64,000 bases of DNA from Escherichia coli (GTDB taxonomy: Bacteria; Pseudomonadota; Gammaproteobacteria; Enterobacterales; Enterobacteriaceae), in NCBI RefSeq assembly GCF_017348835.2, contig NZ_CP071375.1; one strand, written 5' to 3'. How positions within the stretch are numbered: position 1 is the first letter of the stretch; every line of letters begins with the position of its first letter. The position numbers and the translations under genes were made by a program. Shown one piece after another: positions 29,608-64,000 of the stretch. The notes beneath the pieces were generated by a model, which was given only the letters and a program-made list of their open reading frames with translations, did no database searches and was not told the origin of the DNA.

Positions 29608-29684
29608 TAAGAGTGTGTCGGCGGTCAATTTCCCTTAAGTAACGCTATGTTAGGGTGTTGTGTTCAGGATATCTGGGGCATGAC

Positions 29685-30956
29685 ATGGAAGACGACTGCG
29701 ACATTATTATTATTGGTGCCGGTATTGCAGGCACCGCTTGTGCGTTACGCTGCGCGCGAGCGGGTTTATCCGTTTTGTTACTGGAACGCGCTGAAATCCC
29801 CGGCAGCAAAAATCTTTCCGGCGGGCGGTTATATACCCATGCACTCGCGGAACTCCTCCCGCAATTTCATCTGACCGCGCCTCTTGAACGACGCATCACT
29901 CACGAAAGCCTTTCCCTGTTAACGCCGGATGGCGCAACGACGTTTTCCAGCTTACAGCCCGGCGGTGAATCCTGGAGTGTATTACGTGCACGGTTCGATC
30001 CGTGGCTGGTTGCCGAAGCCGAAAAAGAAGGTGTCGAATGCATCCCTGGTGCGACGGTGGATGCACTGTATGAAGAAAACGGCAGGGTGTGTGGTGTCAT
30101 TTGTGGTGACGATATTCTCCGCGCCCGTTATGTGGTGCTGGCAGAAGGTGCCAACAGCGTCCTGGCTGAACGTCACGAGTTAGTGACTCGTCCTGCTGGC
30201 GAAGCGATGGCGTTGGGGATCAAAGAAGTGCTGTCGCTGGAAACATCCGCTATTGAAGAACGTTTTCATCTGGAGAATAACGAAGGCGCAGCGTTGCTGT
30301 TCAGTGGCGGAATCTGTGATGACTTTCCCGGCGGCGCATTTCTTTATACTAATCAACAAACGCTCTCGTTAGGGATTGTTTGCCCGCTCTCTTCCCTTAC
30401 GCAAAGCCGTGTTCCGGCAAGCGAGCTGCTGACTCGCTTTAAAGCGCATCCGGCAGTGCGCCCGCTTATCAAAAACACGGAATCACTGGAGTATGGTGCG
30501 CATCTGGTGCCAGAAGGTGGCTTGCACAGTATGCCGGTACAATACGCCGGTAACGGCTGGCTGCTGGTGGGCGATGCGTTACGCAGTTGCGTCAATACCG
30601 GAATCTCCGTGCGCGGCATGGATATGGCGCTGACTGGCGCACAGGCGGCGGCACAAACGCTGATAAGCGCCTGCCAGCACCGCGAGCCGCAAAATCTGTT
30701 TCCGCTTTATCATCACAACGTAGAGCGCAGCCTGCTGTGGGATGTTCTACAGCGTTATCAGCATGTTCCGGCGCTTTTGCAACGCCCTGGCTGGTATCGG
30801 GCGTGGCCTGCGTTAATGCAGGATATTTCCCGCGATTTATGGGATCAGGGTGATAAACCTGTTCCACCGCTGCGCCAATTATTCTGGCGTCATTTACATC
30901 GTCACGGCCTGTGGCATCTGGCGGGCGATTTTATCAGGAGTCTGCGATGTCTGTAG
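29685..30956 (+). CDS. ygcN: FixC-like FAD-dependent oxidoreductase (ETF-quinone oxidoreductase family)
   Basis: Rossmann motif IIIIGAGIAGTACAL; start taken at MEDDCD. Confidence 0.85.
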   Translation: MEDDCDIIIIGAGIAGTACALRCARAGLSVLLLERAEIPGSKNLSGGRLYTHALAELLPQFHLTAPLERRITHESLSLLTPDGATTFSSLQPGGESWSVLRARFDPWLVAEAEKEGVECIPGATVDALYEENGRVCGVICGDDILRARYVVLAEGANSVLAERHELVTRPAGEAMALGIKEVLSLETSAIEERFHLENNEGAALLFSGGICDDFPGGAFLYTNQQTLSLGIVCPLSSLTQSRVPASELLTRFKAHPAVRPLIKNTESLEYGAHLVPEGGLHSMPVQYAGNGWLLVGDALRSCVNTGISVRGMDMALTGAQAAAQTLISACQHREPQNLFPLYHHNVERSLLWDVLQRYQHVPALLQRPGWYRAWPALMQDISRDLWDQGDKPVPPLRQLFWRHLHRHGLWHLAGDFIRSLRCL

Positions 30957-31207
30957 CCCGTAATCTCTGGCGCGTTGCTGATGCGCCACACATTGTTCCG
31001 GCTGACTCCGTTGAGCGCCAGACGGTACAACGGTTGATTAATGCCTGTCCGGCAGGTCTTTTTTCGCTCACACCGGAAGGTGACTTACGCGTTGATTATC
31101 ACGGCTGCCTGGAGTGTGGCACCTGCCGTCTGCTGTGCGACGAAAAAACACTACAACAGTGGCGCTATCCGCCTTCCGGATTCGGCATCACCTACCGCTT
31201 TGGATAA
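30947..31207 (+). CDS. ygcO: FixX-like ferredoxin
   Basis: 86 aa with CLECGTCRLLC cysteine cluster. Confidence 0.8.
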   Translation: MSVARNLWRVADAPHIVPADSVERQTVQRLINACPAGLFSLTPEGDLRVDYHGCLECGTCRLLCDEKTLQQWRYPPSGFGITYRFG

Positions 31208-31223
31208 ATAATAAGGATAATTT

Positions 31224-31799
31224 ATGCCCCTCTTACACCTGCTCCGCCAGAATCCGGTGATTGCTGCCGTTAAAGATAATGCCAGCCTGCAACTGGCAAT
31301 CGATTCTGAATGCCAATTTATTTCCGTGTTGTACGGCAATATCTGCACCATCAGTAATATCGTTAAAAAGATTAAGAACGCCGGGAAATATGCTTTTATT
31401 CATGTTGATTTGCTGGAAGGCGCGTCAAATAAAGAAGTCGTTATTCAGTTTTTGAAACTGGTGACCGAGGCGGACGGCATTATCAGTACCAAAGCCTCAA
31501 TGTTGAAAGCGGCAAGAGCGGAAGGTTTTTTCTGTATTCATCGCCTGTTTATTGTTGATTCGATTTCGTTTCACAACATTGATAAGCAAGTTGCGCAATC
31601 GAATCCGGATTGTATTGAGATCCTGCCAGGCTGCATGCCCAAAGTGCTGGGCTGGGTGACGGAAAAAATCCGCCAACCGCTGATTGCTGGCGGGCTGGTA
31701 TGCGATGAAGAAGATGCGCGTAATGCGATTAACGCGGGTGTCGTGGCGCTTTCCACCACGAATACCGGAGTCTGGACGTTAGCGAAAAAATTGCTTTGA
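31224..31799 (+). CDS. ygcP: GlpP-like (glycerol-3-phosphate responsive) antiterminator-family protein
   Basis: 191 aa; conserved position in the ygc cluster. Confidence 0.8.
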   Translation: MPLLHLLRQNPVIAAVKDNASLQLAIDSECQFISVLYGNICTISNIVKKIKNAGKYAFIHVDLLEGASNKEVVIQFLKLVTEADGIISTKASMLKAARAEGFFCIHRLFIVDSISFHNIDKQVAQSNPDCIEILPGCMPKVLGWVTEKIRQPLIAGGLVCDEEDARNAINAGVVALSTTNTGVWTLAKKLL

Positions 31800-31865
31800 C
31801 GGGATAATCGTAACCAATTGAATTTGGTTTGATTTGTAGGCCGCACGCCACATCCGACATTCAGC

Positions 31866-31902
31866 GCCTGATGCGACGCTTAACACGTCTTATCAGGCCT
31901 AC
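31866..31902. repeat. REP element between ygcP and ygcQ
   Basis: GCCTGATGCGACGCTTAACACGTCTTATCAGGCCTAC. Confidence 0.55.
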
Positions 31903-31946
31903 AGGTCCCCAGTCCAGAACCGTAGGCAGGATCATCCGGCAACACG

Positions 31947-32807
31947 TTATTGGCAATCTGCGTGAATGGTTGTCACCAGTGCCTCCAGCACCACTTTCCA
32001 GTCATCAACCACGCCAACATCTGCCTGTGAAAATACCGCTGCGCTGGCGTCATGATTAATCGCCACCACAAACTTGCTATTGCGTACGCCCGCCATTAAC
32101 GCTGCTGCGCCAGAAGCGCCAACAACAATACACACCTCAGGTGCCAGCAGATGTCCGGAAATACCAATCACTTTTTCAGCATCAACGCCACCGTTCATCA
32201 CTCGCGCCCGACTGTAGCCCACTTCGGCTCCCAGCTTTTCTGCCAGCATAGCGATTTCCTGGTTATCTGCCTCTCCGCCCTGCCCCACCACCAACACCCG
32301 TCTGGCCTCAGCTAATGGGTCGCGGGTAACATTTTTCAGGTTCTCTATGCTAACCAGCCAGTCCGGAAGCGCACCTGGGACTATGTTCAGTTGCTGCATA
32401 CCAGAGGGCAACGTGGCATTTTTATCTGCTCCCGCCTGGCGCGCCAGGGAAAGGCATAGCGGGCGTTTTTCTGTTTGCAGCGTCGCCGTTAGCGCATTTC
32501 CCCAGTGGGATTTGCGCACGCTTACGGTTGGAATATCTAACGAAGTCACCTGGCAGATGCTTGCACCATGTAAACGCCAGGCCAGCCGGGTCGACAGTTC
32601 ATCGCCAAACGTTCCCGGCGGAAAGAGAACAACGTCCGCAGGCGTTCGCTGCCACTGTTCCACCAGCGCATCCAGCACCTGTTCCACCACTACGGGCTGT
32701 GGTTCTATTTGCCAGTGCGCCAGGGTACAACCGCTGAAATCCTGCGCCGCCAGCCAGCCCGCTAATGCGGCATTCTCCTGATTTATTGTCACAATTGCGA
32801 TATTCAT
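31947..32807 (-). CDS. ygcQ: Electron transfer flavoprotein alpha-subunit-like (FixB-like)
   Basis: 286 aa from MNIAIVTINQ. Confidence 0.85.
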   Translation of the reverse strand: MNIAIVTINQENAALAGWLAAQDFSGCTLAHWQIEPQPVVVEQVLDALVEQWQRTPADVVLFPPGTFGDELSTRLAWRLHGASICQVTSLDIPTVSVRKSHWGNALTATLQTEKRPLCLSLARQAGADKNATLPSGMQQLNIVPGALPDWLVSIENLKNVTRDPLAEARRVLVVGQGGEADNQEIAMLAEKLGAEVGYSRARVMNGGVDAEKVIGISGHLLAPEVCIVVGASGAAALMAGVRNSKFVVAINHDASAAVFSQADVGVVDDWKVVLEALVTTIHADCQ

Positions 32808-33583
32808 GGCTGCATCCTTTGGCGTAAATAGTCCTGCCATAGCTTTTGCGCTTTTTCTGCTACCGTTTGCCCATCAATCAGCGTCGCTCCGCGTCGTTGC
32901 TCTGCTCTTGCCAGTTGCAGACACTGCATCGCTGGCAATTCGGCAGCAACAGTTTTACGGATAATTTCCGCTTTCCCCGCAGCCATTCGCTGGCGCATTC
33001 CCGGTACTGGCAAGGCCACTTCACCGCACTGACGCACGGCAATCACCGCAGGCAAGCGAATCCGACAACAGCGCAGCCCATGTTCAGTACGCTGTTCGAG
33101 GGTGATAAACGGCGCGTCGAGAGTGAAACGCTCCACCTGGGTGAAGCAGGGCCAGCCCAGCATTTCCGCCAGCAAAAATGGCGTTTGCCCATTCTGCCCT
33201 TCGCTGCTTTGGCAGCCGGTAATTATCAGATCCAGCGGATTCTGACGCTGCCATTCGGCAATATGGCGAGCGACAAATTCCGACGCAAAGCGCAGATCTG
33301 CCGCCGTCTCCAGCAATACAGCTTCCTCAAACCCAAGAGCCATGAGATAGCGCAGCCAGTGTAACGCCCGTTCATCCCCCATGCTCAACGCGGTTAAAGA
33401 CATCGGCGTACCGTTTTTTCTCTGCGCCAACAGCAGCGCGGCGGCAGCCTGTTCATCAGCACCGAGTAAACTTCGCAGTAGCGAAACATCCGGTCCGCTA
33501 TTACCCTGAGCCGCCGCCTGCCACTCTTTTTCCGCCAGCATTCCGGCATCCGGTTCGGCTTTAAACGCTAACAGAATGTTCAT
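32804..33583 (-). CDS. ygcR: Electron transfer flavoprotein beta-subunit-like (FixA-like)
   Basis: 259 aa; stop overlaps the ygcQ start. Confidence 0.85.
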   Translation of the reverse strand: MNILLAFKAEPDAGMLAEKEWQAAAQGNSGPDVSLLRSLLGADEQAAAALLLAQRKNGTPMSLTALSMGDERALHWLRYLMALGFEEAVLLETAADLRFASEFVARHIAEWQRQNPLDLIITGCQSSEGQNGQTPFLLAEMLGWPCFTQVERFTLDAPFITLEQRTEHGLRCCRIRLPAVIAVRQCGEVALPVPGMRQRMAAGKAEIIRKTVAAELPAMQCLQLARAEQRRGATLIDGQTVAEKAQKLWQDYLRQRMQP

Positions 33584-34898
33584 TCGCACCTCCTACATTT
33601 CCCGCCGCCACCAGCGGGAGTGCTTTGGTTTCTGGTGCCCATAGCCAGGTCACAACAAAACCAACCAACAACACTGCCGCCAGGAGCAATAAGGTGACTT
33701 GCATTCCCCACTGCGCCAGCACCCACGGCAGCAGGCCAGTACTTACCGCCGCCCCCAACCGACTCATGGCGGTGGCAAAACCGACGCCCAGCGAGCGAAT
33801 GTCAGTAGGAAAACTTTCCGCAGGCAAAATGCCCACCAGATTACTGACTGCCGAAATGGTGGTGCTGAAGAGAACAAAAAGCAGCAGCGTTAATGAACTG
33901 CCGGAAGGCAAACAGGCCATCACTACCAGCGTTGCCGCCAGCAGCAAAAAACTTCCCAGCAAAAATTTGCGATGTGCCAGCAGGTGCGTCAGAACTAATC
34001 CCAGCAGCGCGCCCACAATTAACAACGCATTAAGCATCAGGCTGGCAGTCAGCGCATCTTCCAGTCCAATAGTCTGGGCGATAGTTGGCAGCCAGGTATA
34101 AATCACAAACCATGGGATTACGAGGCAGACAAAGAAGACGCTGTTAAACGCCGTGCGCCGCCAGTAACGCGAAGAGAACAAGGTTTTGATGTGTTTATGG
34201 GTCGCCGTTACCACTTCATCGCCCAGTAAAACATGGGGACCAAAATAGCGATGCACGATAGCGTGAGCTTCTGCAAAACGCCCCTGGCGCAGTAGCCAGC
34301 GTGGCGATTCTGGCGTTCCCCAGCGTAATAACGTAATCAACAACGCGGGCAGAGCTGCCGATGCCAGCAGCCAGCGCCAGGCCTCCGGGCTTTCGCTAAT
34401 AAAGTGATGTCCGGCAATACTTGCCAGCACATAACCTACGGTCCACACCACGCTGAATGCGCCCAGCAAAATACCGCGATGGCGGCGCGGGGAAAATTCA
34501 GCCAGCAAGGTGTGACCAACTGAGTAATCGCCTCCCAGCCCAATGCCGATCAAAATGCGCAGCCCAATAAGATGCTCTGGCGTGGTGGCAAAAAATTGCA
34601 AGAACGAAGCGAGCGTAATCAGCAAAAAGCTGAAGGTGAAGATTTTTTGCCGACCAATATGGTCGGAGATCCACCCAAGAACCAGGCTGCCAAGAAACAA
34701 ACCAAGGAGCGCCGAGCCGCCGATCATTCCCGCCATAAACGGCGTCAGTTGCATGGCGGGCGTAAGCTGAATAATGGCGTAACCAATGACGCCGAGAACA
34801 TAACCGTCGGTCAGGTGTGCGCCGAAAGTGAGCGCAGCAATTCGACAGTGAAAACGGTTAAGCGGTAAATCATCCATTCGCACCGGTGAAGTGTTCAT
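33561..34898 (-). CDS. ygcS: MFS transporter (sugar/metabolite:H+ symporter family)
   Basis: 445 aa, 12 predicted transmembrane segments, MFS motif GWISDHIGRQK. Confidence 0.85.
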   Translation of the reverse strand: MNTSPVRMDDLPLNRFHCRIAALTFGAHLTDGYVLGVIGYAIIQLTPAMQLTPFMAGMIGGSALLGLFLGSLVLGWISDHIGRQKIFTFSFLLITLASFLQFFATTPEHLIGLRILIGIGLGGDYSVGHTLLAEFSPRRHRGILLGAFSVVWTVGYVLASIAGHHFISESPEAWRWLLASAALPALLITLLRWGTPESPRWLLRQGRFAEAHAIVHRYFGPHVLLGDEVVTATHKHIKTLFSSRYWRRTAFNSVFFVCLVIPWFVIYTWLPTIAQTIGLEDALTASLMLNALLIVGALLGLVLTHLLAHRKFLLGSFLLLAATLVVMACLPSGSSLTLLLFVLFSTTISAVSNLVGILPAESFPTDIRSLGVGFATAMSRLGAAVSTGLLPWVLAQWGMQVTLLLLAAVLLVGFVVTWLWAPETKALPLVAAGNVGGANEHSVSV

Positions 34899-34991
34899 CT
34901 TTACCCCTTCATTGTCCGGTAATAAGAACGGCTTCTCGCCTGAGAAGCCGAAAAGGCAACGCCCCATCATCGCGGAACGCTGCCTGACACA

Positions 34992-48306: not shown

Positions 48307-50541
48307 CTAACTCCCGTGCAACCGACGCGCGTCGATAACATCCGGCACCTGGTTGAGTTTACCCAGCACGCGACCCAGCACCTGCAGGTTGTAAATCTCA
48401 ATGGTCATGTCGATGGTCGCCAGTTGCTGTTTGGTGTCGCTACGGCTGGCAACGCCAAGCACGTTCACTTTCTCATTGGCGAGAATGGTCGTGATATCAC
48501 GTAACAACCCACTACGATCATTAGCCACCACGCGGACCACCAGCGAATATCCGGCGGAGTAGCTCTCGCCCCATACCGCGTCAACAATGCGTTCTGGCGC
48601 ATGGGAGCGCAGTTCCGCCAGTTGTTCGCAATCGGCGCGGTGTACTGAAATACCGCGCCCCTGGGTAATGAAGCCGACAATCTCATCTCCAGGAATCGGC
48701 TGGCAGCAACGCGCGATGTGGTGCATCAGGTTACCGACACCTTCAACCACCACACGACCGTTATCTTTACTGCGGTTTTGCGGCGTGTAACTTTTTTGCT
48801 GAAGTTGCTTCAGCGCGGCGGCGTCCTGCTCTTCGGCACTCGGCTTATTAAATTGCGATTGCAGGAAGTTCACCATCTGATTGAGACGGATATCCCCGCC
48901 ACCAATCGCCGCCAGCAACTCGTCGACATCATTGAAGTTGTAACGCGGCAGCAGATGTTTTTCTGCTTCTTTCAGGCTGATCCCCAGATGTTCCAGCTCG
49001 TCGTCAAGGATTTGCCGCCCAGCCAGAATGTTTTTGTCACGGTCCTGTTTACGGAACCAGGCGTGAATTTTCGAACGCCCACGGCTGGTTGTGACGTAAC
49101 CGAGGTTTGGGTTTAACCAGTCACGGCTGGGGTTCGGCTGTTTCTGGGTGATAATTTCAATCTGGTCGCCCATCTGCAGCTGGTAGGTGAACGGCACAAT
49201 GCGCCCGCCAATTTTTGCCCCGATGCAGCGGTGTCCGACATCACTGTGGATGTGGTAAGCGAAGTCCAGCGGCGTTGATCCCGCAGGCAAATCAACGACA
49301 TCACCTTTCGGCGTAAAGACATACACCCGGTCGTCAAACACCTGACTACGTACTTCGTCGAGCATTTCGCCGGAATCAGCCATCTCTTCCTGCCACGCAA
49401 TCAGTTTACGCAGCCAGGCAATCCGGTCTTCATGTCCCGAACGTGCGCCGCCAGCAGCCGCGCCCTCTTTATATTTCCAGTGCGCAGCAACACCCAACTC
49501 TGCATCTTCATGCATCTGTTTGGTGCGGATTTGGATCTCAACGGTTTTTCCACCCGGCCCCAGAACCACGGTATGAATAGACTGATAACCGTTTGGTTTC
49601 GGGTTAGCGACGTAATCGTCAAACTCATCCGGCAGGTGGCGATAGTGAGTGTGCACTATCCCCAGTGCGGCATAACAATCCTGTAAACGCTCGGCGACAA
49701 TACGTACCGCACGCACATCAAACAGCTCATCGAAGGCGAGGTTCTTTTTCTGCATTTTGCGCCAGATGCTGTAGATGTGTTTCGGACGACCATACACTTC
49801 AGCTTTAACGCCTTCAGCTTTCATCTCAGCGCGCAGATGACCGACAAACTCTTCGATATAGTGTTCGCGGTCGAGACGGCGTTCATGCAACAGTTTTGCG
49901 ATGCGTTTGTATTCGGTCGGGTGGAGATAACGGAAGCAGTAATCTTCCAGCTCCCATTTCAGTTGCCCAATCCCAAGACGGTTTGCCAACGGCGCGTAGA
50001 TATTGGTGCACTCTTTTGCCGCCAGTACGCGTTCATCTTCCGGCGCATCTTTTACTTCACGCAGATGAGCAATACGCTCCGCCAGTTTGATGACCACGCA
50101 GCGAAAATCATCGACCATCGCCAATAACATCCGGCGAACGTTATCGACCTGTTCGGAGGAAACAGAATCAGTGTGCGTCGCTTTCAGTTGGCGGATCGCC
50201 GCCATATCACGCACGCCGTGAATAAGGTTAACGACCGACTTACCGACGCTCTCACGCAGCACATCTTCGCTGACTACGTTGGCATCCGCCAGAGGGAAAA
50301 GCAGCGCCGCCCGCAGCGTGTCAATGTCCATACTTAATGTCGAGAGGATCTCCACCATCTCAACACCACGCCACAATAACAGACTGGCATCCGGATGCCC
50401 CTGCGTCTGTTGCAGACAATACGCCCAGGTTTCGGCTAAGCACTCACACGACTTCTGGCTGGTAATACCCAGACTTGCGATCCATTTTTCCGGATCAAAT
50501 TCACCAGCCTTATTGATATGTGCACTTCTTACCGCAACCAT
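48307..50541 (-). CDS. relA: GTP pyrophosphokinase ((p)ppGpp synthetase I)
   Basis: 744 aa with synthetase, TGS and ACT domains. Confidence 0.97.
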   Translation of the reverse strand: MVAVRSAHINKAGEFDPEKWIASLGITSQKSCECLAETWAYCLQQTQGHPDASLLLWRGVEMVEILSTLSMDIDTLRAALLFPLADANVVSEDVLRESVGKSVVNLIHGVRDMAAIRQLKATHTDSVSSEQVDNVRRMLLAMVDDFRCVVIKLAERIAHLREVKDAPEDERVLAAKECTNIYAPLANRLGIGQLKWELEDYCFRYLHPTEYKRIAKLLHERRLDREHYIEEFVGHLRAEMKAEGVKAEVYGRPKHIYSIWRKMQKKNLAFDELFDVRAVRIVAERLQDCYAALGIVHTHYRHLPDEFDDYVANPKPNGYQSIHTVVLGPGGKTVEIQIRTKQMHEDAELGVAAHWKYKEGAAAGGARSGHEDRIAWLRKLIAWQEEMADSGEMLDEVRSQVFDDRVYVFTPKGDVVDLPAGSTPLDFAYHIHSDVGHRCIGAKIGGRIVPFTYQLQMGDQIEIITQKQPNPSRDWLNPNLGYVTTSRGRSKIHAWFRKQDRDKNILAGRQILDDELEHLGISLKEAEKHLLPRYNFNDVDELLAAIGGGDIRLNQMVNFLQSQFNKPSAEEQDAAALKQLQQKSYTPQNRSKDNGRVVVEGVGNLMHHIARCCQPIPGDEIVGFITQGRGISVHRADCEQLAELRSHAPERIVDAVWGESYSAGYSLVVRVVANDRSGLLRDITTILANEKVNVLGVASRSDTKQQLATIDMTIEIYNLQVLGRVLGKLNQVPDVIDARRLHGS

Positions 50542-50588
50542 CGTCCTCTCCTTTAGGGACCAGACCTGCCGAAATCGGCAAATCGCAA

Positions 50589-51890
50589 CTATTTAACGCG
50601 CGAGAAAAGTACCATCGATTCCAGATGTCCCGTGTGTGGGAACATATCCAGCATCGCCAGTCGCGCAATGGTATATCCTGCTTTTAATAACGCTTCGCTA
50701 TCCCGAGCCAGCGTTGCAGGGTTACAGGATACATAAACTATACGAATAGGTTCCAGTTTTATAATTTGCTGCATAACACCTGCGGCACCTGCTCGCGCGG
50801 GGTCCAGCAACACTTTATCGAAGCCGTTTTTCGCCCACGGCTGCTTTGTGACATCTTCTTCAAGATTTTCGTGATAAAACGTTACATTCTGTAAGCCGTT
50901 AAGACGCGCATTCTGCTGGCCTTTTTCCACCAGCGCCGGAACACCTTCTACACCCACCACACTGGCAGCTTGTGTCGCCAATGGCAGTGTAAAGTTGCCC
51001 ATACCGCAGAACAGATCCAGTACGCGATCTTCAGGTTCCACATCCAGCCATTCCAACGCACGCGCTACCATTTTTTGGTTCACACCCGCATTAACCTGAA
51101 TAAAATCGCGCGGGCTAAAAGTTAAGCGCAACCCGTTTGAGTCATACCATGGCATCTCACCAGAGACGGTTTCGAGTATCTCACTATCGGGGGCAAGATA
51201 CAGATCCAGGCCTTCAGAATGCGAAAAGCGTTCCAGTTTTTCGCGATCTGCCGAACTTAGCGGTGCGGTATGGCGCAAAATCATCAGCGTGCCGCTGGTT
51301 GCCTGTACCAGTTCAACATGACCAAGATGGCGCATAGCTTGTAAGCTGCCCAGGCATGCCCTGACTTTGGGCAGCAATGCTTCAAGTTGGGGCACTAAAA
51401 TGGGGCATTGTTTAACGTCGACAATGTCACTGGAGCCCGCTTTGCGAAACCCCATCTGAAGTTGCTGTGTTTTCGGTAAGTAGTTCAGACTTAAACGCGC
51501 GCGACGGCGATAGCCCCAGGGAACATCGGCGATCACTTCAGAGACTTCGTGTTTCATTAATCGGGCAAGTGCCGCACTTTTGCTTCGCTGCTGTAAATCC
51601 ACGCTGGCGTGTTGTTGCTGACAGCCGCCGCATACGCCAAAATGAGGACAGCGTGGCGTTTCGCGTTCCGGGCTATCGCTTAACCGGCGTACGACTTTAG
51701 CGCGGGCATACTGTTTTTTATCTTCAGTAACAGTAACTTCCGCGTTTTCCTGCGGCAATAATCCGGGGATAAATAGCGTTTTGCCGTTATGTCGCGCCAC
51801 GCCCTGACCAAAAGAGTCGAGGTCGTTGACTGAAACGGTTATGATCTGACGCGTCGTCGTGCGTCGTTTTGCAGAGTAGAATTGCGCCAT
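50589..51890 (-). CDS. rlmD: 23S rRNA (uracil1939-C5)-methyltransferase RlmD
   Basis: 433 aa with TRAM domain, Fe-S cysteines and SAM methyltransferase domain. Confidence 0.93.
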
Positions 51891-51946
51891 TGGCGAGACT
51901 TTCTCAATTTAACAGTGTGACCTTAATTGTCCCATAACGGAACTCC

Positions 51947-54703
51947 ATGACCAACTACAGCCTGCGCGCACGCATGATGATTCTGATCCTGGCACCGACC
52001 GTCCTTATTGGTTTATTGCTGAGTATCTTTTTCGTCGTGCATCGCTATAACGACTTGCAGCGTCAACTGGAAGATGCCGGTGCCAGCATTATTGAGCCGC
52101 TTGCAGTTTCTACTGAATATGGCATGAGCCTGCAAAATCGCGAATCTATCGGTCAGTTAATAAGCGTACTGCATCGTCGCCATTCCGATATTGTTCGCGC
52201 GATTTCGGTTTATGATGAAAATAACCGACTCTTTGTCACCTCCAATTTTCATCTTGATCCCTCATCAATGCAGCTCGGCAGCAACGTGCCGTTTCCTCGC
52301 CAGCTCACTGTCACTCGTGACGGCGATATTATGATCCTCCGCACGCCGATTATTTCTGAGAGTTACTCCCCCGACGAATCGCCCAGTAGCGATGCCAAAA
52401 ATAGTCAAAATATGTTGGGATATATTGCGCTTGAGCTGGATCTTAAATCGGTTCGCTTGCAGCAATATAAAGAGATCTTTATTTCCAGCGTGATGATGCT
52501 GTTTTGTATCGGTATTGCGCTTATTTTTGGCTGGCGCTTAATGCGCGATGTAACCGGTCCGATTCGCAACATGGTGAATACCGTCGACCGCATCCGTCGC
52601 GGGCAACTCGACAGCCGGGTGGAAGGATTTATGCTCGGCGAGCTGGATATGCTGAAAAACGGTATCAACTCGATGGCAATGTCGCTGGCTGCTTATCACG
52701 AAGAGATGCAGCACAATATCGACCAGGCGACGTCCGATCTGCGTGAAACGCTGGAGCAGATGGAAATTCAGAACGTTGAGTTGGATCTGGCGAAAAAGCG
52801 CGCCCAGGAAGCGGCGCGTATTAAATCCGAGTTTCTGGCAAATATGTCACACGAGCTGCGTACACCACTGAATGGTGTTATTGGCTTTACCCGCCTGACG
52901 CTGAAAACAGAATTAACACCAACGCAGCGCGATCACCTGAATACGATTGAACGTTCGGCAAATAATTTGCTGGCAATTATTAATGATGTTCTCGACTTCT
53001 CGAAACTGGAAGCAGGTAAGCTGATTCTGGAAAGTATTCCATTCCCACTACGCAGCACGCTGGATGAAGTCGTTACTCTGCTGGCACATTCTTCTCACGA
53101 TAAAGGGTTGGAACTGACGCTCAATATTAAAAGCGACGTGCCTGATAACGTGATCGGCGACCCACTGCGATTACAGCAAATCATCACTAACCTGGTGGGG
53201 AATGCAATTAAATTCACCGAGAATGGCAACATTGATATTCTGGTAGAAAAACGTGCGCTGAGTAATACCAAAGTGCAGATTGAAGTGCAGATTCGGGATA
53301 CCGGCATTGGTATTCCTGAACGTGATCAATCGCGCTTATTCCAGGCCTTCCGACAGGCTGATGCCAGTATTTCCCGCCGTCATGGTGGCACCGGGCTGGG
53401 GCTGGTGATTACACAAAAACTGGTTAATGAAATGGGCGGCGATATTTCGTTCCATAGCCAGCCGAATCGCGGTTCAACTTTCTGGTTCCACATTAATCTC
53501 GATCTGAACCCGAACATTATTATTGAAGGGCCATCCACCCAGTGCCTCGCCGGTAAACGCCTGGCCTATGTCGAACCAAACTCCGCAGCAGCACAATGCA
53601 CGCTGGATATTTTAAGTGAAACGCCGCTGGAAGTGGTTTATAGCCCAACGTTCTCCGCGCTGCCTCCCGCGCATTACGACATGATGTTGTTAGGCATCGC
53701 GGTGACCTTCCGCGAGCCGTTAACAATGCAACATGAGCGATTAGCGAAAGCGGTATCGATGACCGATTTCCTGATGCTGGCACTTCCTTGCCATGCACAA
53801 GTCAATGCTGAAAAACTCAAGCAAGATGGTATCGGCGCGTGTCTGCTGAAACCATTAACACCTACGCGCCTGTTGCCTGCCCTGACGGAATTTTGTCATC
53901 ACAAACAAAACACGCTTTTGCCTGTAACCGATGAAAGTAAGCTGGCAATGACAGTCATGGCGGTTGATGACAACCCCGCTAACCTGAAACTTATCGGCGC
54001 ATTGCTGGAAGATATGGTGCAACATGTGGAACTTTGCGATAGCGGGCATCAGGCGGTTGAACGGGCGAAACAGATGCCGTTCGATTTGATCTTAATGGAT
54101 ATTCAAATGCCGGACATGGATGGCATTCGGGCCTGCGAACTCATCCACCAACTCCCCCATCAGCAACAAACGCCGGTTATCGCGGTAACGGCGCATGCAA
54201 TGGCCGGGCAAAAAGAGAAGCTGCTTGGCGCAGGGATGAGCGATTATCTGGCGAAACCGATTGAAGAAGAGCGATTGCATAATTTGTTGTTGCGCTACAA
54301 GCCTGGCAGCGGTATTTCGTCTCGCGTCGTGACGCCCGAAGTCAACGAAATTGTGGTGAACCCGAATGCGACCCTCGACTGGCAACTGGCACTACGCCAG
54401 GCAGCAGGAAAAACCGATTTAGCGCGCGATATGCTGCAAATGTTACTCGATTTCCTGCCTGAAGTTCGCAACAAAGTTGAGGAACAGCTGGTTGGAGAAA
54501 ACCCGGAAGGCCTGGTTGATTTGATTCATAAACTGCATGGCAGTTGCGGCTATAGCGGTGTGCCGCGTATGAAGAATCTCTGCCAACTGATCGAACAACA
54601 GCTACGTAGCGGTACTAAAGAAGAAGATTTGGAGCCGGAGCTGCTGGAACTGTTGGACGAGATGGATAATGTCGCGCGCGAAGCCAGCAAAATTCTCGGG
54701 TAA
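51947..54703 (+). CDS. barA: Hybrid sensor histidine kinase BarA (HAMP-HisKA-HATPase-REC-HPt)
   Basis: 918 aa; H-box SHELRTPLN, receiver domain and HPt domain. Confidence 0.95.
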
Positions 54704-54777
54704 CGGACGTCTTGTCGAGTAGCAATCGGCTTTTTATGACGCTGGTTTCAGATTGGTGACAAAGTGCCTGTGTTTAT

Positions 54778-54811
54778 GCCGGATGCGGCGTTAACGCCTT
54801 ATCCGGCCTAC
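54778..54811. repeat. REP element between barA and gudD
   Basis: GCCGGATGCGGCGTTAACGCCTTATCCGGCCTAC. Confidence 0.55.
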
Positions 54812-54934
54812 AAAACCAATTAAATTCAATGAATTAAAAAATGATGTAGACTTGATACATAGCACAACAGGCTATTTTGCGTTTAGCATCAGTCTCAAAC
54901 CGGCTCCAGATAGAGCCGGTTTTGGTTTTCTGTC

Positions 54935-56275
54935 TTAACGCACCATGCACGGGCGCTTGTTATCGAACGTCCAGCCAGGAATCAGATACTGCATTCCCAT
55001 CGCATCGTCACGCGCGCCAAGCCCGTGTTTCTGATACAGCTCATGGGCTTTCATCACTTGATCCATATCGATTTCTACACCCAGCCCCGGTTTTTCTGGC
55101 ACCTGTACCAGCCCGCCTTTGATCTCAAACGGTTCTTTGGTCAGGCGCTGATTGCCTTCCTGCCAAATCCAGTGCGTATCAATAGCAGTAATTTTACCCG
55201 GTGCAGCGGCGGCAACATGGGTAAACATCGCCAGGGAAATATCGAAGTGGTTGTTAGAGTGTGAACCCCAGGTCAGGCCAAATTCATGGCACATTTGCGC
55301 CACACGTACCGAACCTTGCATCGTCCAGAAATGCGGATCCGCCAGCGGGATATCAACGGATTGTAACGAGAGCGTATGGCCCATCTGCCGCCAGTCGGTG
55401 GCGATCATATTGGTTGCTGTCGGCAGGCCAGTCGCGCGACGGAACTCTGCCATCACTTCACGCCCGGAGAAACCTTGCTCCGCACCACACGGATCTTCTG
55501 CATAAGCCAGCGAACCTTTCAGGTATTTACCAATTTTAATCGCTTCGTTCAGCGACCAGGCACCGTTAGGATCGAGCGTAATACGCGCCTGCGGGAAGCG
55601 TTGCGCCAGTGCCACAATAGACTCGGCCTCTTCTTCCCCGGCCAGTACACCGCCTTTCAGTTTGAAATCGTTGAAGCCATATTTTTCATACGCCGCTTCC
55701 GCCAGGCGCACCACCGCATCCGGCGTCATCGCTTCTTCATGACGCAGGCGATACCAGTCGCATGAGTCATCCGGCTGGCTTTGATACGGCAGAGGTGTGG
55801 CTTTGCGATTACCGACGAAGAACAGATAACCGAGCATTTCGACTTCGCTACGCTGTTGACCATCGCCCAGCAGGGATGCCACGTTAACCCCCAGATGCTG
55901 CCCCAGCAGATCCAGCATTGCCGCTTCTATCCCGGTAACTACATGAATAGTGGTACGCAAATCAAATGTCTGCAAACCGCGCCCGCCGGCATCACGATCG
56001 GCAAAAGTATTACGCACCAGCGTCAGAACGTTTTTGTATTCACCCAGCGTTTTACCCACTACCAGCGGAATCGCATCTTCCAGCGTTTTACGGATTTTCT
56101 CGCCGCCGGGAATTTCCCCTACGCCAGTGTGACCAGAATTATCTTTGATAATCACAATATTACGCGTGAAGAACGGTGCGTGTGCACCACTCAGATTCAT
56201 CAGCATACTGTCATGGCCCGCCACCGGGATGACCTGCATTTCAGTAACAACAGGCGTCGTAAATTGAGAACTCAT
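54935..56275 (-). CDS. gudD: Glucarate dehydratase (enolase superfamily)
   Basis: 446 aa from [24 protein letters not shown]. Confidence 0.93.
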
Positions 56276-56295
56276 ATTTATGTCTTTTTTCAGAA

Positions 56296-57636
56296 TCAAT
56301 GACGGCCGAAAACGGGACGTTTACGGTCAAAGGTCCAGCCGGGGATCAGGTACTGCATCGGGCCTGCGTCGTTACGCGCACCGCCAGGCAGACGTTCATA
56401 GGCCTCATGTGCCTTTTGTACCTGTTCCCAGTCCAGTTCCACGCCCAGACCGGGCGCATCAGGAACGGCAATTTTTCCGTTTTTAATCTCCAGCGGATTT
56501 TTGGTCAGGCGACAGTCGCCCTCCTGCCAAATCCAGTGGGTATCGATAGCGGTAGGATTACCCGGTGCCGCCGCGCCCACATGGGTAAACATCGCCAGAG
56601 AGATATCGAAATGGTTATTAGAATGGCAGCCCCAGGTCAGCCCCCAGTCGTCGCAAAGCTGCGCCACACGGACTGCACCGGAAAGCGTCCAGAAGTGCGG
56701 ATCGGCAAGTGGAATATCTACCGCATTGAGCATCACCGCATGACCCATTTCGCGCCAGTTGGTGGCGATCATGTTAGTCGCGACGGGCAAGCCGGTCGCC
56801 CGCCGAAACTCCGCCATCACTTCACGTCCGGAGAAGCCCTGTTCTGCGCCGCATGGATCTTCGGCATAGGTAAGAACATCATTCAGCCCTTTGCACAGAG
56901 AAATGGCTTCATCAAGCAGCCATGCACCGTTGGGATCAACGGTAATCCGCGCATCCGGGAAGCGTTTCTTCAATGCACGAACAGTGTCGATTTCTTGCTC
57001 GCCAGGTAACACGCCGCCCTTAAGTTTGAAATCTTTAAAGCCGTAGCGATCCTGTGAGGCTTCCGCCAGACGCACAACGGCTTCGCTGTTCATCGCTTTC
57101 TGATGGCGCAACTGATACCACTCATGGTTGCCCGGCGTATTTTCCAGATAAGGAAGATCGGTTTTGGTCCGATCACCGATATAAAACAGATAACCGAGGA
57201 CGGTAATAGCATCGCGTTGTTTGCCTGGTCCTAATAGTTCGCAGACCGGAACATTCAGCGCCTTACCTAGCAGGTCAAGCAAGGCGGCTTCCAACGCCGC
57301 CACGGCATTAACGCGCAATTCAAAAGTCCAGGCTCCTTTACCGAAGGTATCAAAATCGGCGGCCTGATTACCTTTATGCACCTGCTGAACCACTTTATTC
57401 AGGCGCGCAACTTCCTGGCCCAGCACCATCGGAATAGCTTCGACCAGTGTTTGATAAATCACCTCTCCGCCCGGCGCTTCACCAATGCCGGTATGCCCGG
57501 CATTATCGGTGAGTACCACGATATTGCGGGTGAAGTATGCGTTATGCGCACCACCAATATTGAGCAACATGCTGTCATGTCCGGCGACCGGAATGACTTT
57601 CATATCAGTAATAACAGGACTGGATTGTGTCGTCAT
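56296..57636 (-). CDS. gudX: Glucarate dehydratase-related protein
   Basis: 446 aa paralogue of gudD immediately upstream. Confidence 0.9.
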
Positions 57637-57637
57637 C

Positions 57638-58448
57638 TTATTGCCCCGCGACAGGTTTCAGCTCGATACGCTTGATATCGCCCACCAGCACCAGGTAGCT
57701 CAGTACCGCGATTAAGGCATGAACACCAACATAAATCAGCGCCCCATTAAACGAGCCAGTCGTGCCAACGATATAACCAATTGCGATTGGCGTGACGATG
57801 CCAGAAATGTTACCGAACATGTTGAACAGGCCACCGGAAAGACCGCTGATCTCTTTTGGCGCGGTATCTGCCATTACTGCCCAACCCAGCGCCCCAATGC
57901 CCTTACCGAAGAAGGCCAGCGCCATAAAGCCGATGATCATCCACTCAACGTTGACGTAGTTGCAGAACACCATCACCATCGACAGCAACATGCCCATTAC
58001 GATCGGTGTTTTACGCGCAATGTTCAGCGATCCCGTGCGGCGCATCAGCCAGTCGGAAATAATCCCACCCAGCACACCACCGATAAAACCACAAACCGCC
58101 GGAACGGAAGCCACAAAGCCCGCTTTCAGAATCGACATCCCACGCGCCTGCACCAGATAAACCGGAAACCAGGTAATGAAAAAGTAAGTCAGGGCGTTGA
58201 TACAGTACTGACCGATATAAACGCCGATCATCATCCGTGACCCGAGCAGCTGTTTGATCTGCCCCCACTTCACGCTGAACGGCACTTTAACTTTGGTGTT
58301 TTGCTGATCCATATTGATCAGCGCGCCACCCGCGGCGATGTACTCCAGCTCTTTCTGATTTACCCCCGGATGTTGATTTGGCTCGTGGATGACTTTCAAC
58401 CAGATAAAGCTGATGACAATCCCCAGACCGCCCATAAAGAAGAAGACG
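57638..58448 (-). pseudogene. gudP: gudP 3' portion (C-terminal ~270 codons of the glucarate/galactarate MFS transporter), severed by IS629
   Basis: Frame reads ...(H)VFFFMGGLGIVISFIWLK... and is open upstream to the IS boundary at 58448. Confidence 0.9.
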
Positions 58449-58502
58449 TGAACCGCCCCGGAAATCCTGGAGACTAAACTCCCTGAGAAAGAGGTAAACA
58501 GG

Positions 58503-58829
58503 ATGACTAAAAATACTCGTTTTTCCCCCGAAGTCCGTCAGCGGGCGATTCGTATGGTTCTGGAAAGTCAGGATGAATATGACTCACAGTGGGCGGCAAT
58601 TTGTTCCATTGCCCCAAAGATTGGCTGTACGCCGGAGACTCTGCGTGTCTGGGTTCGCCAGCATGAGCGGGATACCGGGAGTGGTGATGGTGGACTCACC
58701 ACCGCTGAACGTCAGCGTCTGAAAGAGCTGGAACGTGAAAATCGTGAACTGCGCCGCAGTAACGATATCCTTCGCCAGGCTTCCGCTTATTTTGCGAAGG
58801 CGGAGTTCGACCGCCTCTGGAAAAAATAA
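58503..58829 (+). CDS. IS629-like OrfA
   Basis: Identical 108-aa product to copy 1 orfA. Confidence 0.9.
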
Positions 58830-59716
58830 TGCCACTGCTGGATAAGCTGCGTGAGCAGTACGGGGTCGGACCGGTATGCAGCGAACTGCATATTGCCCCG
58901 TCAACGTATTACCATTGTCAGCAACAGCGACATCATCCGGATAAACGCAGTGCCCGTGCGCAGCACGATGACTGGCTGAAGAAAGAGATACAGCGCGTAT
59001 ACGATGAAAATCACCAGGTATACGGTGTGCGTAAAGTCTGGCGTCAGTTGTTACGGGAAGGTATCAGAGTGGCCAGATGCACTGTGGCACGTCTCATGGC
59101 AGTTATGGGACTTGCCGGTGTTCTCCGGGGTAAAAAGGTCCGCACTACCGTCAGCCGGAAAGCCGTTGCCGCATGCGACCGCGTAAACCGTCAGTTCGTG
59201 GCAGAACGTCCAGACCAGTTGTGGGTGGCTGATTTTACCTGGGTAAGCACATGGCAGGGCTTCGTTTATGTGGCGTTCATCATTGATGTGTTCGCCGGAT
59301 ACATCGTGGGATGGCAGGTCTCATCATCCATGGAAACAACATTCGTGCTGGATGCACTGGAGCAGGCGTTGTGGGCCCGTCGGCCGTCCGGCACAATCCA
59401 TCACAGTGATAAAGGTTCTCAGTATGTATCGCTGGCCTACACGCAGCGGCTTAAGGAAGCCGGATTACTGGCATCAACAGGGAGTACTGGCGACTCGTAT
59501 GACAACGCGATGGCTGAGAGCATCAATGGTCTTTACAAAGCGGAGGTAATACACCGTAAGAGCTGGAAAAACCGTGCAGAAGTGGAACTGGCCACACTCA
59601 CGTGGGTGGACTGGTATAACAATCGACGATTGCTGGAAAGGCTGGGCCATATTCCTCCGGCAGAAGCAGAAAAAGCTTATTATGCTTCCATCGGAAATAA
59701 TGATCTGGCAGCCTGA
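58829..59716 (+). CDS. IS629-like OrfB (rve transposase)
   Basis: 295 aa; one substitution (T to A) relative to copy 1. Confidence 0.9.
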   Translation: MPLLDKLREQYGVGPVCSELHIAPSTYYHCQQQRHHPDKRSARAQHDDWLKKEIQRVYDENHQVYGVRKVWRQLLREGIRVARCTVARLMAVMGLAGVLRGKKVRTTVSRKAVAACDRVNRQFVAERPDQLWVADFTWVSTWQGFVYVAFIIDVFAGYIVGWQVSSSMETTFVLDALEQALWARRPSGTIHHSDKGSQYVSLAYTQRLKEAGLLASTGSTGDSYDNAMAESINGLYKAEVIHRKSWKNRAEVELATLTWVDWYNNRRLLERLGHIPPAEAEKAYYASIGNNDLAA

Positions 59717-59758
59717 GTTCACAGATAAAACACTCTCCAGGAAACCCGGGGCGGTTCA

Positions 59759-60304
59759 GACGTGTGACCAGCCCACTTCATGCGTCAGCCAGCCCATAAT
59801 CGGCGCGAAGATCACCGTTGCGAAGTATTGAGCGGAGTTAAAAATCGACACCGCCGTTCCCCTTTCCTGCGCCGGAAACCAGGCCGCAACAATGCGACTG
59901 TTGCCGGGGAAAGATGGCGCTTCAGCAAGCCCGACCAGGAAGCGCAGAGTAAACAGGGCAACGATAATGCCGAATCCACTAAAGATATCGACGAAGCCTT
60001 GCAGCAAGGTAAACATCGACCAGATAAAGATCGACCAGAAGTAGACGCGTTTTGAACCAAAACGATCCAGCAACCAACCACCAGGGATCTGCCCGATAAC
60101 ATAAGCCCATGAGAAGGCAGAGAACACATAGCCCATTCCCACGGGATCAAGGCCGATATCTTTGGCCATTTCCGAACCGGCAATAGAAAGCGTAGCGCGG
60201 TCGCCGTAGTTGAAGGATGTGACGATAAACAACATCACCACTATCCAGTAACGAGCATTCGTGCGTTTTTCCACACTGCTCGCAGCCTGACTTAAAGAAC
60301 TCAT
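59759..60304 (-). pseudogene. gudP: gudP 5' portion (N-terminal ~181 codons), terminated by a stop supplied by the IS end
   Basis: MSSLSQAASSVEKRTNARYWIVVM...THEVGWSHV then TGA formed by the IS629 terminal TCA (minus strand). Confidence 0.9.
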
Positions 60305-60738
60305 TGTTGCACTCCTGAAAATTCGCGTTAGCCACGCTCACTCTGGACTGCGACATCGCCAGGAAATCAGAGGTGACGTAGGGTGTTTTTTGCCGTTTTT
60401 ATAGGTCGTTCGCCGAATACGGCGCGTGTTTATATCTGGCAATAGCAGTATAAAAAGCGCGCCATAGCGGCTCACCGTGCAACAACACAACATTAATGCG
60501 TTCAATGAGGCCCGATTTTGGCATTAGCCCTGGACGGTGGAATCCACTTCACGGAAATGAAAACAAGAACAAGAAAGGAAGGGTTAAAACGAAGAAATAA
60601 AGAAGAGTATGAAATGGATCGCTTGACTCCAGGCAAACGCCAGTAAAAATCCGCGCTATGAAGCAGTTTTTACTGGCATTTGCCTGAAAAGATTCGATTC
60701 AGCACCGCTAAAACGACATTTACCGCTCGCTGAACATA

Positions 60739-61188
60739 TCAGGACAACAGCGTGCCCCACTGTTCGACCCACGGATTTGATTCCGTTTCCGGTTCCGGGT
60801 TCTCACTGGCGTCAATCAACAGCATTTCGCCAACCCGCTGAGCGCTCTGTTCCTGCAACAAGGCATCGAACTGTTTGCCGCCATTGCAGAAATTTACATA
60901 ACTGCTGTCGCCGAGCGCAATCACGCCATAACGCAGATTCGGCTGGAAGCCCAGACTATCTTTGATTCCCTGAAAGAGCGGCACAATGCTATCAGGAAGG
61001 TCGCCCTGCCCGGTCGTGGACGTAACCACCAGAACATACTTATCCTGATAGGGCAGCCAGTCGCTTAATTCAGGATCTTCAAATACCGTTGCTTTGTGGC
61101 CCTGTGCGGTCAGAATTGCTTCTGCTTCTTCCGCCACTAACAGCGAATTTCCGTACATGGTGCCGACAAAAATACCAATTTCCGCCAT
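60739..61188 (-). CDS. yqcA: Flavodoxin-like protein YqcA
   Basis: 149 aa; flavodoxin fold, [15 protein letters not shown]. Confidence 0.9.
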
Positions 61189-61205
61189 ACCGTTTTCTCC
61201 CTGGA

Positions 61206-61988
61206 TTAGGAACTTATCTCTCCATCCTGACCCGATGGCGCACTGAACTCAACCCTTTCATTTTCAGGAAGCAGACCCCGCCAGCCAAATTGTGATAACG
61301 CCTGCATCCAGGTGTCGTCCAGGCCCGCGTGAATAGTCAGCGGCTCGCCAGTAAAAGGATGCGTCAATGACAACTGACTGGCATGCAGCATTAAGCGCTG
61401 AAGGCCAAAATGCTCAGCACCGCTGCGATTCTGGCGTAAATCGCCATGTTTGCTATCGCCAATAATCGGATGACGCAAATGGGCAAGATGGCGACGGAGC
61501 TGGTGCTTGCGTCCGGTTTTCGGCTCCAGTTCCACCAGGCCGTAGCGCGTGGTCGGGTAACGTCCGGTCGCGACCGGCATTTCTACGGTCGCCAGACCGC
61601 GATAATGCGTCACTGCTGGCTGCGGGCCTTTATCTTCGCGGGCAAATTTATCAGCGATTTTGTCCAGTTCTTCCACCAGTGGATAATCCAGCACCGCTTC
61701 TTCCATCAACCAGCCGCGCACAATCGCATGGTAACGTTTCTGGATTTGGTGCTGTTCAAACTGTTGTGCCAGCAGCCGTCCGGCCTCGCTGGATAATCCC
61801 ATCAACAACACACCAGAAGTTGGTCGGTCCAGACGATGAGCAGTAAAAACATGCTGTCCTATCTGGTCACGCACGGTTTGCATGACCACTACTTTCTCGT
61901 CGCGATCCAGCCAGCTGCGGTGAACCAGCCAGCCGGAGGGTTTATTTACCGCAACCAGCCATTCATCCTGATAGAGTATTTCCAGCAT
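61206..61988 (-). CDS. truC: tRNA pseudouridine(65) synthase TruC
   Basis: 260 aa RluA-family; motif [12 protein letters not shown]. Confidence 0.93.
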
Positions 61989-62317
61989 TAGCTCGCATCA
62001 TCCGCAAAAAGAGCATCCAGTTTTTCCAACTCAGTCAGAATAAGCGCGCGTTGCGGATGGTCCGTCGCCAGCGCCATTTCATAATAGGGTGCAACGGCAA
62101 AAGCGCCCGGTAACGGCTGGTTGTTATCTAACAAATCGTGCATTCGTGGGATCAGCACCCACTGCAACCACTCCAGTGGTTCCATGGTGTCCATAAAGAA
62201 CGGTTGGGTACTGTTAAATTGATGCGGCTGGGGTTCATCGTTTCGCCAGTGCTGATGTTCACGCAGTAACGCTTCAAGCGCCTGCAACTGGAGACGAACG
62301 CGGTCATGAGTGGTCAT
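61988..62317 (-). CDS. yqcC: DUF446 protein YqcC
   Basis: 109 aa; stop overlaps the truC start. Confidence 0.85.
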   Translation of the reverse strand: MTTHDRVRLQLQALEALLREHQHWRNDEPQPHQFNSTQPFFMDTMEPLEWLQWVLIPRMHDLLDNNQPLPGAFAVAPYYEMALATDHPQRALILTELEKLDALFADDAS

Positions 62318-62360
62318 AAAGCAACCTCAATAAGAAAAACTGCCGCGAAGGATAGCAGGA

Positions 62361-62719
62361 ATAAAAAAAGGGAGCACTGTATTCACAGTGCTCCCGGTTC
62401 GTTTCGCAGCATTCCAGCTACTTTTGTTGCTCCCTGCTCATCCTTGACAACTTTTCCTCTGGCCTTGCGGCCAATCGTTCATCCTGAACTATTGCTTCCT
62501 GCTCACACCACCCCGATGTGATACTTCATCCTGAAGTGTCCCTGGCCTTCCTGACCCACCGAATCATCCTGACCGGTTCTCATTCTCCATCCTGGAGGTG
62601 TCCTTTAACGCGTCCTGCGTCATCCTCTTCGCTTCATCCAGAAGCCTTTCCCTGAAACACCATCCTGGTGTGTCCTTCAGAAGTGTCATCATCCTGATGT
62701 TCACTTCGTTGTCTGACTC
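62361..62719 (-). ncRNA. csrB: CsrB regulatory sRNA (CsrA-sequestering)
   Basis: Plus strand carries many ATCCTG/TCCTG units, i.e. CAGGA(U/A)G motifs on the minus strand. The 5' end matches GAGTCAGACAACGAAGTGAACATCAGGATG and the 3' end is a terminator hairpin. Confidence 0.85.
62362..62395 (-). terminator. csrB rho-independent terminator
   Basis: Perfect 10-bp stem GGGAGCACTG/CAGTGCTCCC, 6-nt loop, then U7 on the minus strand. Confidence 0.75.
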
Positions 62720-62901
62720 CCTGTCGACGAAGATAGAATCGTCTTTTTCGCGAAGTCTTACAAGGCGCTTACAGACAATGCCTTAAGGAAAATTTCATAT
62801 GAAAGTTAAGAATTAACAAGCAACATATTGATTTTAAATGAAAATAACGATTCTTATCTTTTTAAGTATTCGCTTATTTCCTGGCGATCTCCTACAGAGT
62901 C

Positions 62902-62919
62902 TGTAAGAGATCTCTCACA
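62902..62919. promoter_or_regulatory. UvrY (BarA/UvrY) binding inverted repeat upstream of csrB
   Basis: TGTAAGAGATCTCTCACA, near-palindrome centred about 190 bp upstream of the csrB 5' end. Confidence 0.6.
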
Positions 62920-62938
62920 ACCAGATGGGGTATTTGGA

Positions 62939-63484
62939 TTACAGAAGAGGCTTAAGTTGATTAAGGAATTCCGCAAGATTTGAGGCTAAATGCGTCCGTT
63001 TACGTGTTCCCAGCGTCTCTTTACACACTTCACCGGAGAGATTACACACCGAGATGACCTCTAACTCTTCTTCCAGCGTCGCGATAAATAGCGTGGGCGG
63101 CAGTTTTAGCCTTTTCTGAGTCACCAGATGACCAATCAGATTTTCCTGCACCCGACGGAAGTCGTCTTCACTCCAGGTTTGCAGCAATGTCAGTTTGATA
63201 TCGCCAAACTGCGCGTGCATATCCCCGGCAAACTGAGTCGTATAAAAGGTATGAATTGTGGGTTGTATCACAATATCAAAAGCGCGTTCAACCGCGTTTA
63301 CATTTTGTTCCCCGGTAAACGGCTGGGGTTGCCAGTATACGGCATCTTCAGTAGTTGAAATAATGCACGGTGAAGGAACGCCGTACAGTTCCTCACTTAA
63401 CGGCCAGCTTTTATGCTCTTCCTGCCACGCATCGCAGTAGCGTGCAGTAAAATCTTTCAGGGCTTGTGCGGTCAAATCGTCCAC
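62939..63484 (-). CDS. syd: SecY-interacting protein Syd
   Basis: 181 aa, [17 protein letters not shown]-terminus. Confidence 0.9.
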
Positions 63485-63551
63485 TAATTTCTCTCTTCAC
63501 TTAAACCAGATACACTTGTCGTTTAGTTTATCTGGTTTATGACGGTGAAAC

Positions 63552-64000
63552 ATGTCTTCTTATGCAAACCATCAGGCACTTGCGGGCCTGACTCTTGGAA
63601 AATCAACCGATTACCGGGATACCTATGACGCCAGCCTACTGCAAGGCGTTCCACGCAGCCTGAATCGCGACCCGCTGGGTCTGAAAGCGGATAACCTGTC
63701 TTTTCACGGTACGGATATCTGGACGCTGTATGAACTTTCCTGGCTGAATGCGAAAGGGTTGCCGCAGGTCGCTGTCGGTCATGTTGAACTTGATTACACC
63801 AGCGTAAATCTGATTGAGTCGAAGAGTTTTAAGCTCTATCTCAACAGTTTTAACCAGACGCGTTTTAATAACTGGGATGAGGTGCGCCAGACGCTGGAGC
63901 GCGACTTAAGCACTTGCGCTCAGGGTGAGGTTAGCGTGGCGTTATATCGTCTTGATGAACTGGAAGGCCAGCCGATAGGTCATTTCAATGGCACTTGCAT
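63552..64000 (+). CDS. queF: NADPH-dependent 7-cyano-7-deazaguanine reductase, N-terminal part (3' end outside the window)
   Basis: Starts [37 protein letters not shown]; the frame is open to the window end. Confidence 0.9.

Follow-up and report, generated by a model that had tools for sequence, protein, structure and literature searches.

Does the unannotated gap between yqcC and syd in an Escherichia coli chromosome encode CsrB, a non-coding RNA that works as a sponge for CsrA, and are the sites and the sensor kinase that control csrB intact around it? The question was put to a window of 64,000 nucleotides (the whole stretch of DNA analysed; contig NZ_CP071375.1 of assembly GCF_017348835.2). 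An earlier reading made from the letters alone had called a minus-strand csrB gene here, together with an upstream UvrY-binding repeat and a nearby barA. The gene order is relA, rlmD, barA, gudD, gudX, gudP, yqcA, truC, yqcC, the unannotated gap, syd and queF. The coordinates of the features discussed are given in Table 1.

Table 1. Positions of features in the window, with the basis of each assignment or a remark.
Feature	Position	Strand	Basis or remark
IS629 element, second copy	21485..22794		5 differences from the copy in gudP over 1,320 aligned bp
sok antitoxin RNA	24335..24484	-	Rfam, 105 bits
barA, tripartite sensor kinase phosphorylating UvrY, intact, 918 aa	51947..54703	+	K-12 identity
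IS629/IS1203 element, 1,310 bp, 4-bp target duplication GACG	58449..59758		Splits gudP (57638..60304)
csrB, 369-nt non-coding RNA, predicted CsrA sponge, 22 GGA	62360..62728	-	Rfam RF00018 and K-12 alignment
csrB intrinsic terminator	62363..62395	-	Terminator scan and inverted-repeat search
Core promoter region (inferred assignment)	62729..62773	-	Identity to K-12, hexamer positions
Putative IHF site AATCAATATGTTG, -105..-93	62821..62833	-	Pattern match to WATCAANNNNTTR
Auxiliary partial UvrY half-site TGTAGGAGA, -168..-160	62888..62896	-	Position and PMC4682653
18-nt inverted repeat TGTGAGAGATCTCTTACA, UvrY-P binding site (upstream activating sequence)	62902..62919	-	Identity to the published footprint

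Identity of the RNA between yqcC and syd

The whole window was scanned with Rfam. A single CsrB match (RF00018) was obtained, at 62360..62719 on the minus strand, with a score of 382.9 bits against a gathering score of 71, an E value of 2.2e-111, model positions 1-356 of 356 covered and zero non-canonical pairs flagged. Alignment with csrB of K-12 (b4408) gives the full 369-nt gene, 367 of the 369 positions being identical (99.5%). In K-12 MG1655 the yqcC-syd gap likewise holds csrB, which is annotated there as an ncRNA. The two loci share length, location, strand, the count of 22 GGA, the terminator and the layout of the upstream control region, and 619 of the 623 positions of the intergenic region are identical. 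A protein-coding reading of the region was rejected, since no ORF of at least 80 aa was found within 62318..62938.

A csrB locus was found in 5,425 of 5,426 complete E. coli genomes (identity of at least 95%), and the csrB region is 100% identical in PE164 and F2_81, the chromosomes of two E. coli from pigs. PE164 is the nearest genome, with 99.998% identity over window positions 131..50121 and 99.96% over 50099..64000. In the RefSeq/PGAP annotation of PE164 the csrB feature is absent from the yqcC-syd gap (L001 12219..12839, equivalent to 62318..62938 of the window). Among the top E. coli matches listed, none has a csrB feature annotated under the match, whereas K-12 does.

The RNA contains 22 GGA, 14 AGGA, 8 CAGGA[UA]G and 9 CAGGA[UAC]G motifs. 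Dinucleotide shuffles of csrB gave 15.3±2.5 GGA, with 22 or more in 15 of 2000 shuffles, and 0.30±0.54 CAGGA[UAC]G, with nine or more in 0 of 2000. csrB is also the most GGA-dense 369-nt stretch on both strands of the window, for which the mean is 4.9 GGA. The literature gives E. coli CsrB a length of 369 nt, 22 GGA and CAGGA(U/A/C)G as its typical site (PMC5027483). The sequence-only reading had named inconsistent motif counts as a refutation; the GGA count equals the published number, and its picture of an RNA packed with CAGGA(U/A)G motifs holds. All eleven GGA-bearing hairpins of the Rfam consensus structure form in csrB. In the minimum free energy fold (-119.9 kcal/mol; z = -4.3 against 100 shuffles), nine GGA lie wholly inside hairpin loops and 17 are fully unpaired. 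From the near-identity to an experimentally studied RNA (PMC5027483), we infer that the csrB transcript binds and sequesters multiple CsrA dimers.

The stem of the terminator (62385-62395 / 62370-62380; GGGAGCACUGU/ACAGUGCUCCC) is perfect over 11 bp and encloses a 4-nt loop, GAAU, and U7 follows (62363-62369). A perfect 10-bp stem with U7 had been described; the pairing and the U7 are as stated and the length was a small miscount. In K-12 the stem contains a G.U wobble at RNA position 340, which G340A turns into an A-U pair here, and for this reason the stem was seen as perfect. The other difference from K-12 within the RNA, C52A, affects the flank of GGA #3.

CsrC and CsrB are both GGA-repeat RNAs and belong to one Rfam clan (CL00106), and the RNA could be another Csr/Rsm member of that clan, for example CsrC, or a decayed copy, instead of a functional csrB. 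CsrB is the best family in the clan competition, however, and wins it over the full model; the 369-nt length, the yqcC-syd position and the 99.5% identity to K-12 csrB also contradict such an origin. C52A and G340A are common in E. coli, being present in 41% and 33% of genomes (exact 61-mers in 2,220 of 5,424 and 1,763 of 5,419), and both equal the Rfam consensus base. The Rfam scan, the K-12 locus and the alignment effectively refute this alternative, to which we give a negligible probability. By its similarity to the K-12 gene, 62360..62728 on the minus strand is almost certainly the intact, orthologous csrB of the E. coli chromosome. The earlier call of a csrB RNA on this strand was right to within 1 nt in its coordinates, and the covariance-model scan suggested with it gave a score more than five times the threshold and so no refutation.

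The UvrY-binding repeat

The upstream repeat, TGTAAGAGATCTCTCACA as written in the window, is TGTGAGAGATCTCTTACA when read on the csrB strand, where it occupies -191 to -174 relative to the csrB 5' end (centre -182.5). Even a search tolerating two mismatches gave no further match to TGTAAGAGATCTCTCACA in the window, and 0 matches were expected (100 shuffles). DNase I footprinting and ChIP-exo had located the UvrY-P site in an 18-nt repeat whose centre falls at -183/-182 (Zere et al., 2015; PMC4682653). In that study the repeat was protected from DNase I by phosphorylated UvrY only, and in vivo crosslinking of UvrY at the csrB repeat depended on barA. The sequence found here is letter-for-letter identical to the footprinted site, and it has the upstream activating sequence of the UvrY/SirA/GacA system (TGTRAGN6CTYACA; PMC4682653) without any difference. 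A near-palindrome about 190 bp upstream had been matched to the BarA/UvrY-dependent site; the footprint sequence bears out the match, and the distance is that of the distal edge of the repeat, not of its centre. The same publication reports, 5 bp downstream from the repeat, a TGTAGGAGA that is conserved in part, and then a putative IHF site before the promoter. The auxiliary half-site here is also 5 bp downstream of the inverted repeat, and TGTRAGAGATC-like sequences occupy its place in Klebsiella, Pantoea, Erwinia, Edwardsiella and Rouxiella.

The palindrome starts only 20 nt past the syd stop codon, a position that would also suit a syd terminator or a chance repeat unrelated to csrB. As RNA, however, it would be a 9+9 palindrome with neither a loop nor a U-run after it, and the terminator scan reports none there. 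The identity to the UvrY-P footprint, and the presence of the palindrome beside Csr-type RNAs across Enterobacterales, Vibrionaceae and Shewanella, also argue against an unrelated element. We regard that explanation as effectively refuted, with virtually no probability left to it, and retain the assignment as the UvrY-P binding site of csrB.

For the comparison across species, the exact 18-mer was scanned in one genome per species, which covered at least 120 loci (Enterobacterales, Vibrionaceae, Shewanella and others). A block of at least 12 GGA per 300 nt, starting 100-240 nt away, is flanked by 115 of the 121 exact copies. The orientation of the repeat relative to the sRNA is that of E. coli in 85 cases and flipped in 30, and a fixed orientation was rejected on this count. 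Rfam CsrB was confirmed in nine of the 14 18-mer loci tested, and in the eight Enterobacterales loci with an Rfam match the gap from the repeat to the start of the CsrB model is 164-183 nt (183 nt here). Despite their GGA-dense blocks, the locus of Shewanella gelidimarina (L030) and that on chromosome 2 of Vibrio breoganii (L008) gave no CsrB call in Rfam. The 18-mer stands without a GGA-dense block in L032 (Hahellaceae), L075 (Kangiellaceae) and L077 (Pseudomonadales), which suggests chance matches or other targets.

As a separate observation, Csr-type GGA-rich RNAs of Vibrio, Photobacterium, Shewanella and many Enterobacterales are preceded by the exact 18-mer, of which a single genome often carries several copies (L004-L123).

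Promoter and putative IHF site

In the putative core promoter region, 62758-62763 holds a -35-like TTGTAA, and the hexamer TGTAAG occurs twice, at -45..-40 and at -34..-29. A promoter-proximal UvrY crosslinking region has been mapped to -56..+25 (PMC4682653), and it includes the csrB core promoter. The core promoter, the UvrY repeat and the auxiliary half-site are all identical to K-12. No promoter emerged from a search of 62250..63000 for the sigma-70 consensus. Given that the sequence there is the same as in K-12, this result is taken to be consistent with a weak, activator-dependent csrB promoter and not as evidence against transcription.

The TGTAAG hexamers were considered as a conserved second UvrY contact, which would account for the published crosslink close to the promoter, and this was rejected: TGTAAG is present at that offset in just 39 of 116 loci. 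The printed examples that have it are relatives of E. coli (Citrobacter, Klebsiella, Rouxiella and Edwardsiella), and it is absent at that offset from the printed examples of Pantoea, Erwinia, Dickeya, Vibrio and Shewanella. TGTAAG overlaps the -35-like TTGTAA and is most simply read as the -35 element.

Between the UvrY repeat and the promoter, AATCAATATGTTG is an exact match to the IHF consensus WATCAANNNNTTR. In the published work the putative IHF site lies between two UvrY crosslinking regions and csrB expression is IHF-dependent, with the CsrB level falling about 10-fold without IHF (PMC4682653). Two substitutions relative to the K-12 csrB upstream region fall here, -99 A>T (window 62827) and -92 A>C (window 62820), and they are the sole differences from the UvrY/SirA/GacA system. 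The IHF consensus has N at -99 and stops just short of -92, so that its core is still matched. The combination of -99T and -92C was found in two of 5,426 complete E. coli genomes, PE164 and F2_81 only, and at most 17 of 5,425 genomes are within one mismatch of the 156-nt upstream region. These two rare substitutions are the only unusual point of the csrB locus.

It could be argued from them that csrB regulation is altered in this lineage, the substitutions shifting IHF-assisted activation so that the level of the circuit differs. Such a shift would fit the rarity of the changes, their restriction to the same two pig isolates that share the IS insertion in gudP (gudP::IS629), and the size of the published IHF effect. 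The fully matched core, the location of both changes at or beyond its non-specified positions, and the agreement with K-12 of the repeat, half-site and core promoter speak against it, and we consider altered regulation improbable. Judged from the sequence, a functional effect of the two substitutions is possible but not indicated, because the IHF core consensus is kept.

Linkage to barA, insertion elements and the Csr circuit

BarA of the window is 100% identical in amino-acid sequence to BarA of K-12, and barA is annotated in PE164. The stop codon of barA is 7,656 bp from the csrB 3' end, compared with 6,342 bp in K-12, and the distance from barA to the palindrome is 8.2 kb; the sequence-only figure of 8 kb from barA is fair for either measure. 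The K-12 arrangement barA-gudDXP-yqcA-truC-yqcC-csrB-syd is reproduced in gene order, in orientations and in the BarA protein. It differs in that gudP is split here by an IS and the barA-csrB gap is longer, the IS in gudP accounting for the extra 1,314 bp. This element lies 2.6 kb from csrB and shares 99.3% identity with the phage BP-4795 element that bears the annotation IS629; E. coli genomes have related copies under the name IS1203. The IS activity that had been reported nearby is real. Among the 5,426 complete E. coli genomes, the gudP/IS629 junction is confined to two, the pig isolates PE164 and F2_81. A 201-bp query across this junction matches at least 31 places in PE164, of which nearly all are IS copies.

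Several side observations were made elsewhere in the window. The second IS629 copy borders cas3 on its 5' side, where the annotated start of the gene falls inside the IS end. The type I-E cas operon of PE164 is degraded (about 16.9-21.5 kb), with casA and a 105-nt casB fragment followed by cas2e; the genes between casB and cas2e are missing in the PE164 annotation. A putative CRISPR array lies at about 40967..41301, by queE and apart from the degraded cas operon (coordinates transferred from the PE164 annotation). Between cysH and the IS629/cas3 region, the sok RNA has a Hok/Gef ORF and a partial integrase as its neighbours, and 24335..24484 is part of a chromosomal hok/sok locus.

The linkage of barA and csrB was compared by fetching the flanks of csrB at loci L046, L088, L011, L018, L060, L013 and L083. 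A barA orthologue is near csrB in E. albertii (1.7 kb, the gud operon being absent between them), Enterobacter, Cedecea and Pantoea (9.4 kb). In these taxa and in E. coli the two genes are convergent and 1.7 to 9.4 kb apart, and the distance varies with the inserted gene content. Since barA is near csrB in several genera, the linkage predates E. coli. That it is under selection, and not a historical accident, we regard as very improbable. We know of no evidence for a functional barA-csrB linkage, because UvrY acts in trans, and a search of the literature on barA-csrB synteny returned nothing relevant. If the linkage were selected, it could prevent recombination or transfer from separating the sensor from its main output gene, and the IS629 in gudP and the rare IHF-site substitutions would be a lineage-specific change to that module.

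The elements found can be arranged along the published pathway. BarA, encoded 7.7 kb away, would pass phosphate to UvrY, and UvrY-P would bind the 18-nt inverted repeat at -191..-174. With the DNA bent by IHF at about -100, UvrY-P would activate the weak csrB promoter. The 369-nt transcript, ending at the 11-bp/U7 intrinsic terminator, would expose about 22 GGA, mostly in hairpin loops or single-stranded spacers, and these motifs would bind many CsrA dimers and titrate CsrA off its mRNA targets. In this scheme UvrY-P binding, the dependence on BarA and IHF, and CsrA sequestration are taken from published K-12 experiments. The present analysis shows which gene this is, what motifs it contains, how its RNA is predicted to fold, what the UvrY site is and where it lies, that barA is intact, and that the repeat is linked to Csr RNAs across species; no evidence against the csrB/UvrY explanation was found in it. 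Dependence of csrB transcription on BarA-phosphorylated UvrY, as published for K-12 (PMC4682653), may be expected here by analogy. The sequence-only reading had gone further and held the Csr circuit to be preserved. This is right for barA and csrB, which are intact, and overreaches for the circuit as a whole, because uvrY, csrA, csrC and csrD are encoded outside the window.

Taken together, csrB, the UvrY-binding repeat and barA form an already known, ordinary E. coli locus in which nothing is new. They are textbook parts of the Csr system, essentially identical to those of K-12, and their importance beyond annotation is small. The value of the finding is that a csrB call made from the sequence alone was validated and that a csrB feature is missing from the RefSeq/PGAP annotation of PE164. 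The IS629 that inactivates gudP and the IHF-site substitutions are of local interest as lineage markers, with a possible small effect on csrB expression.
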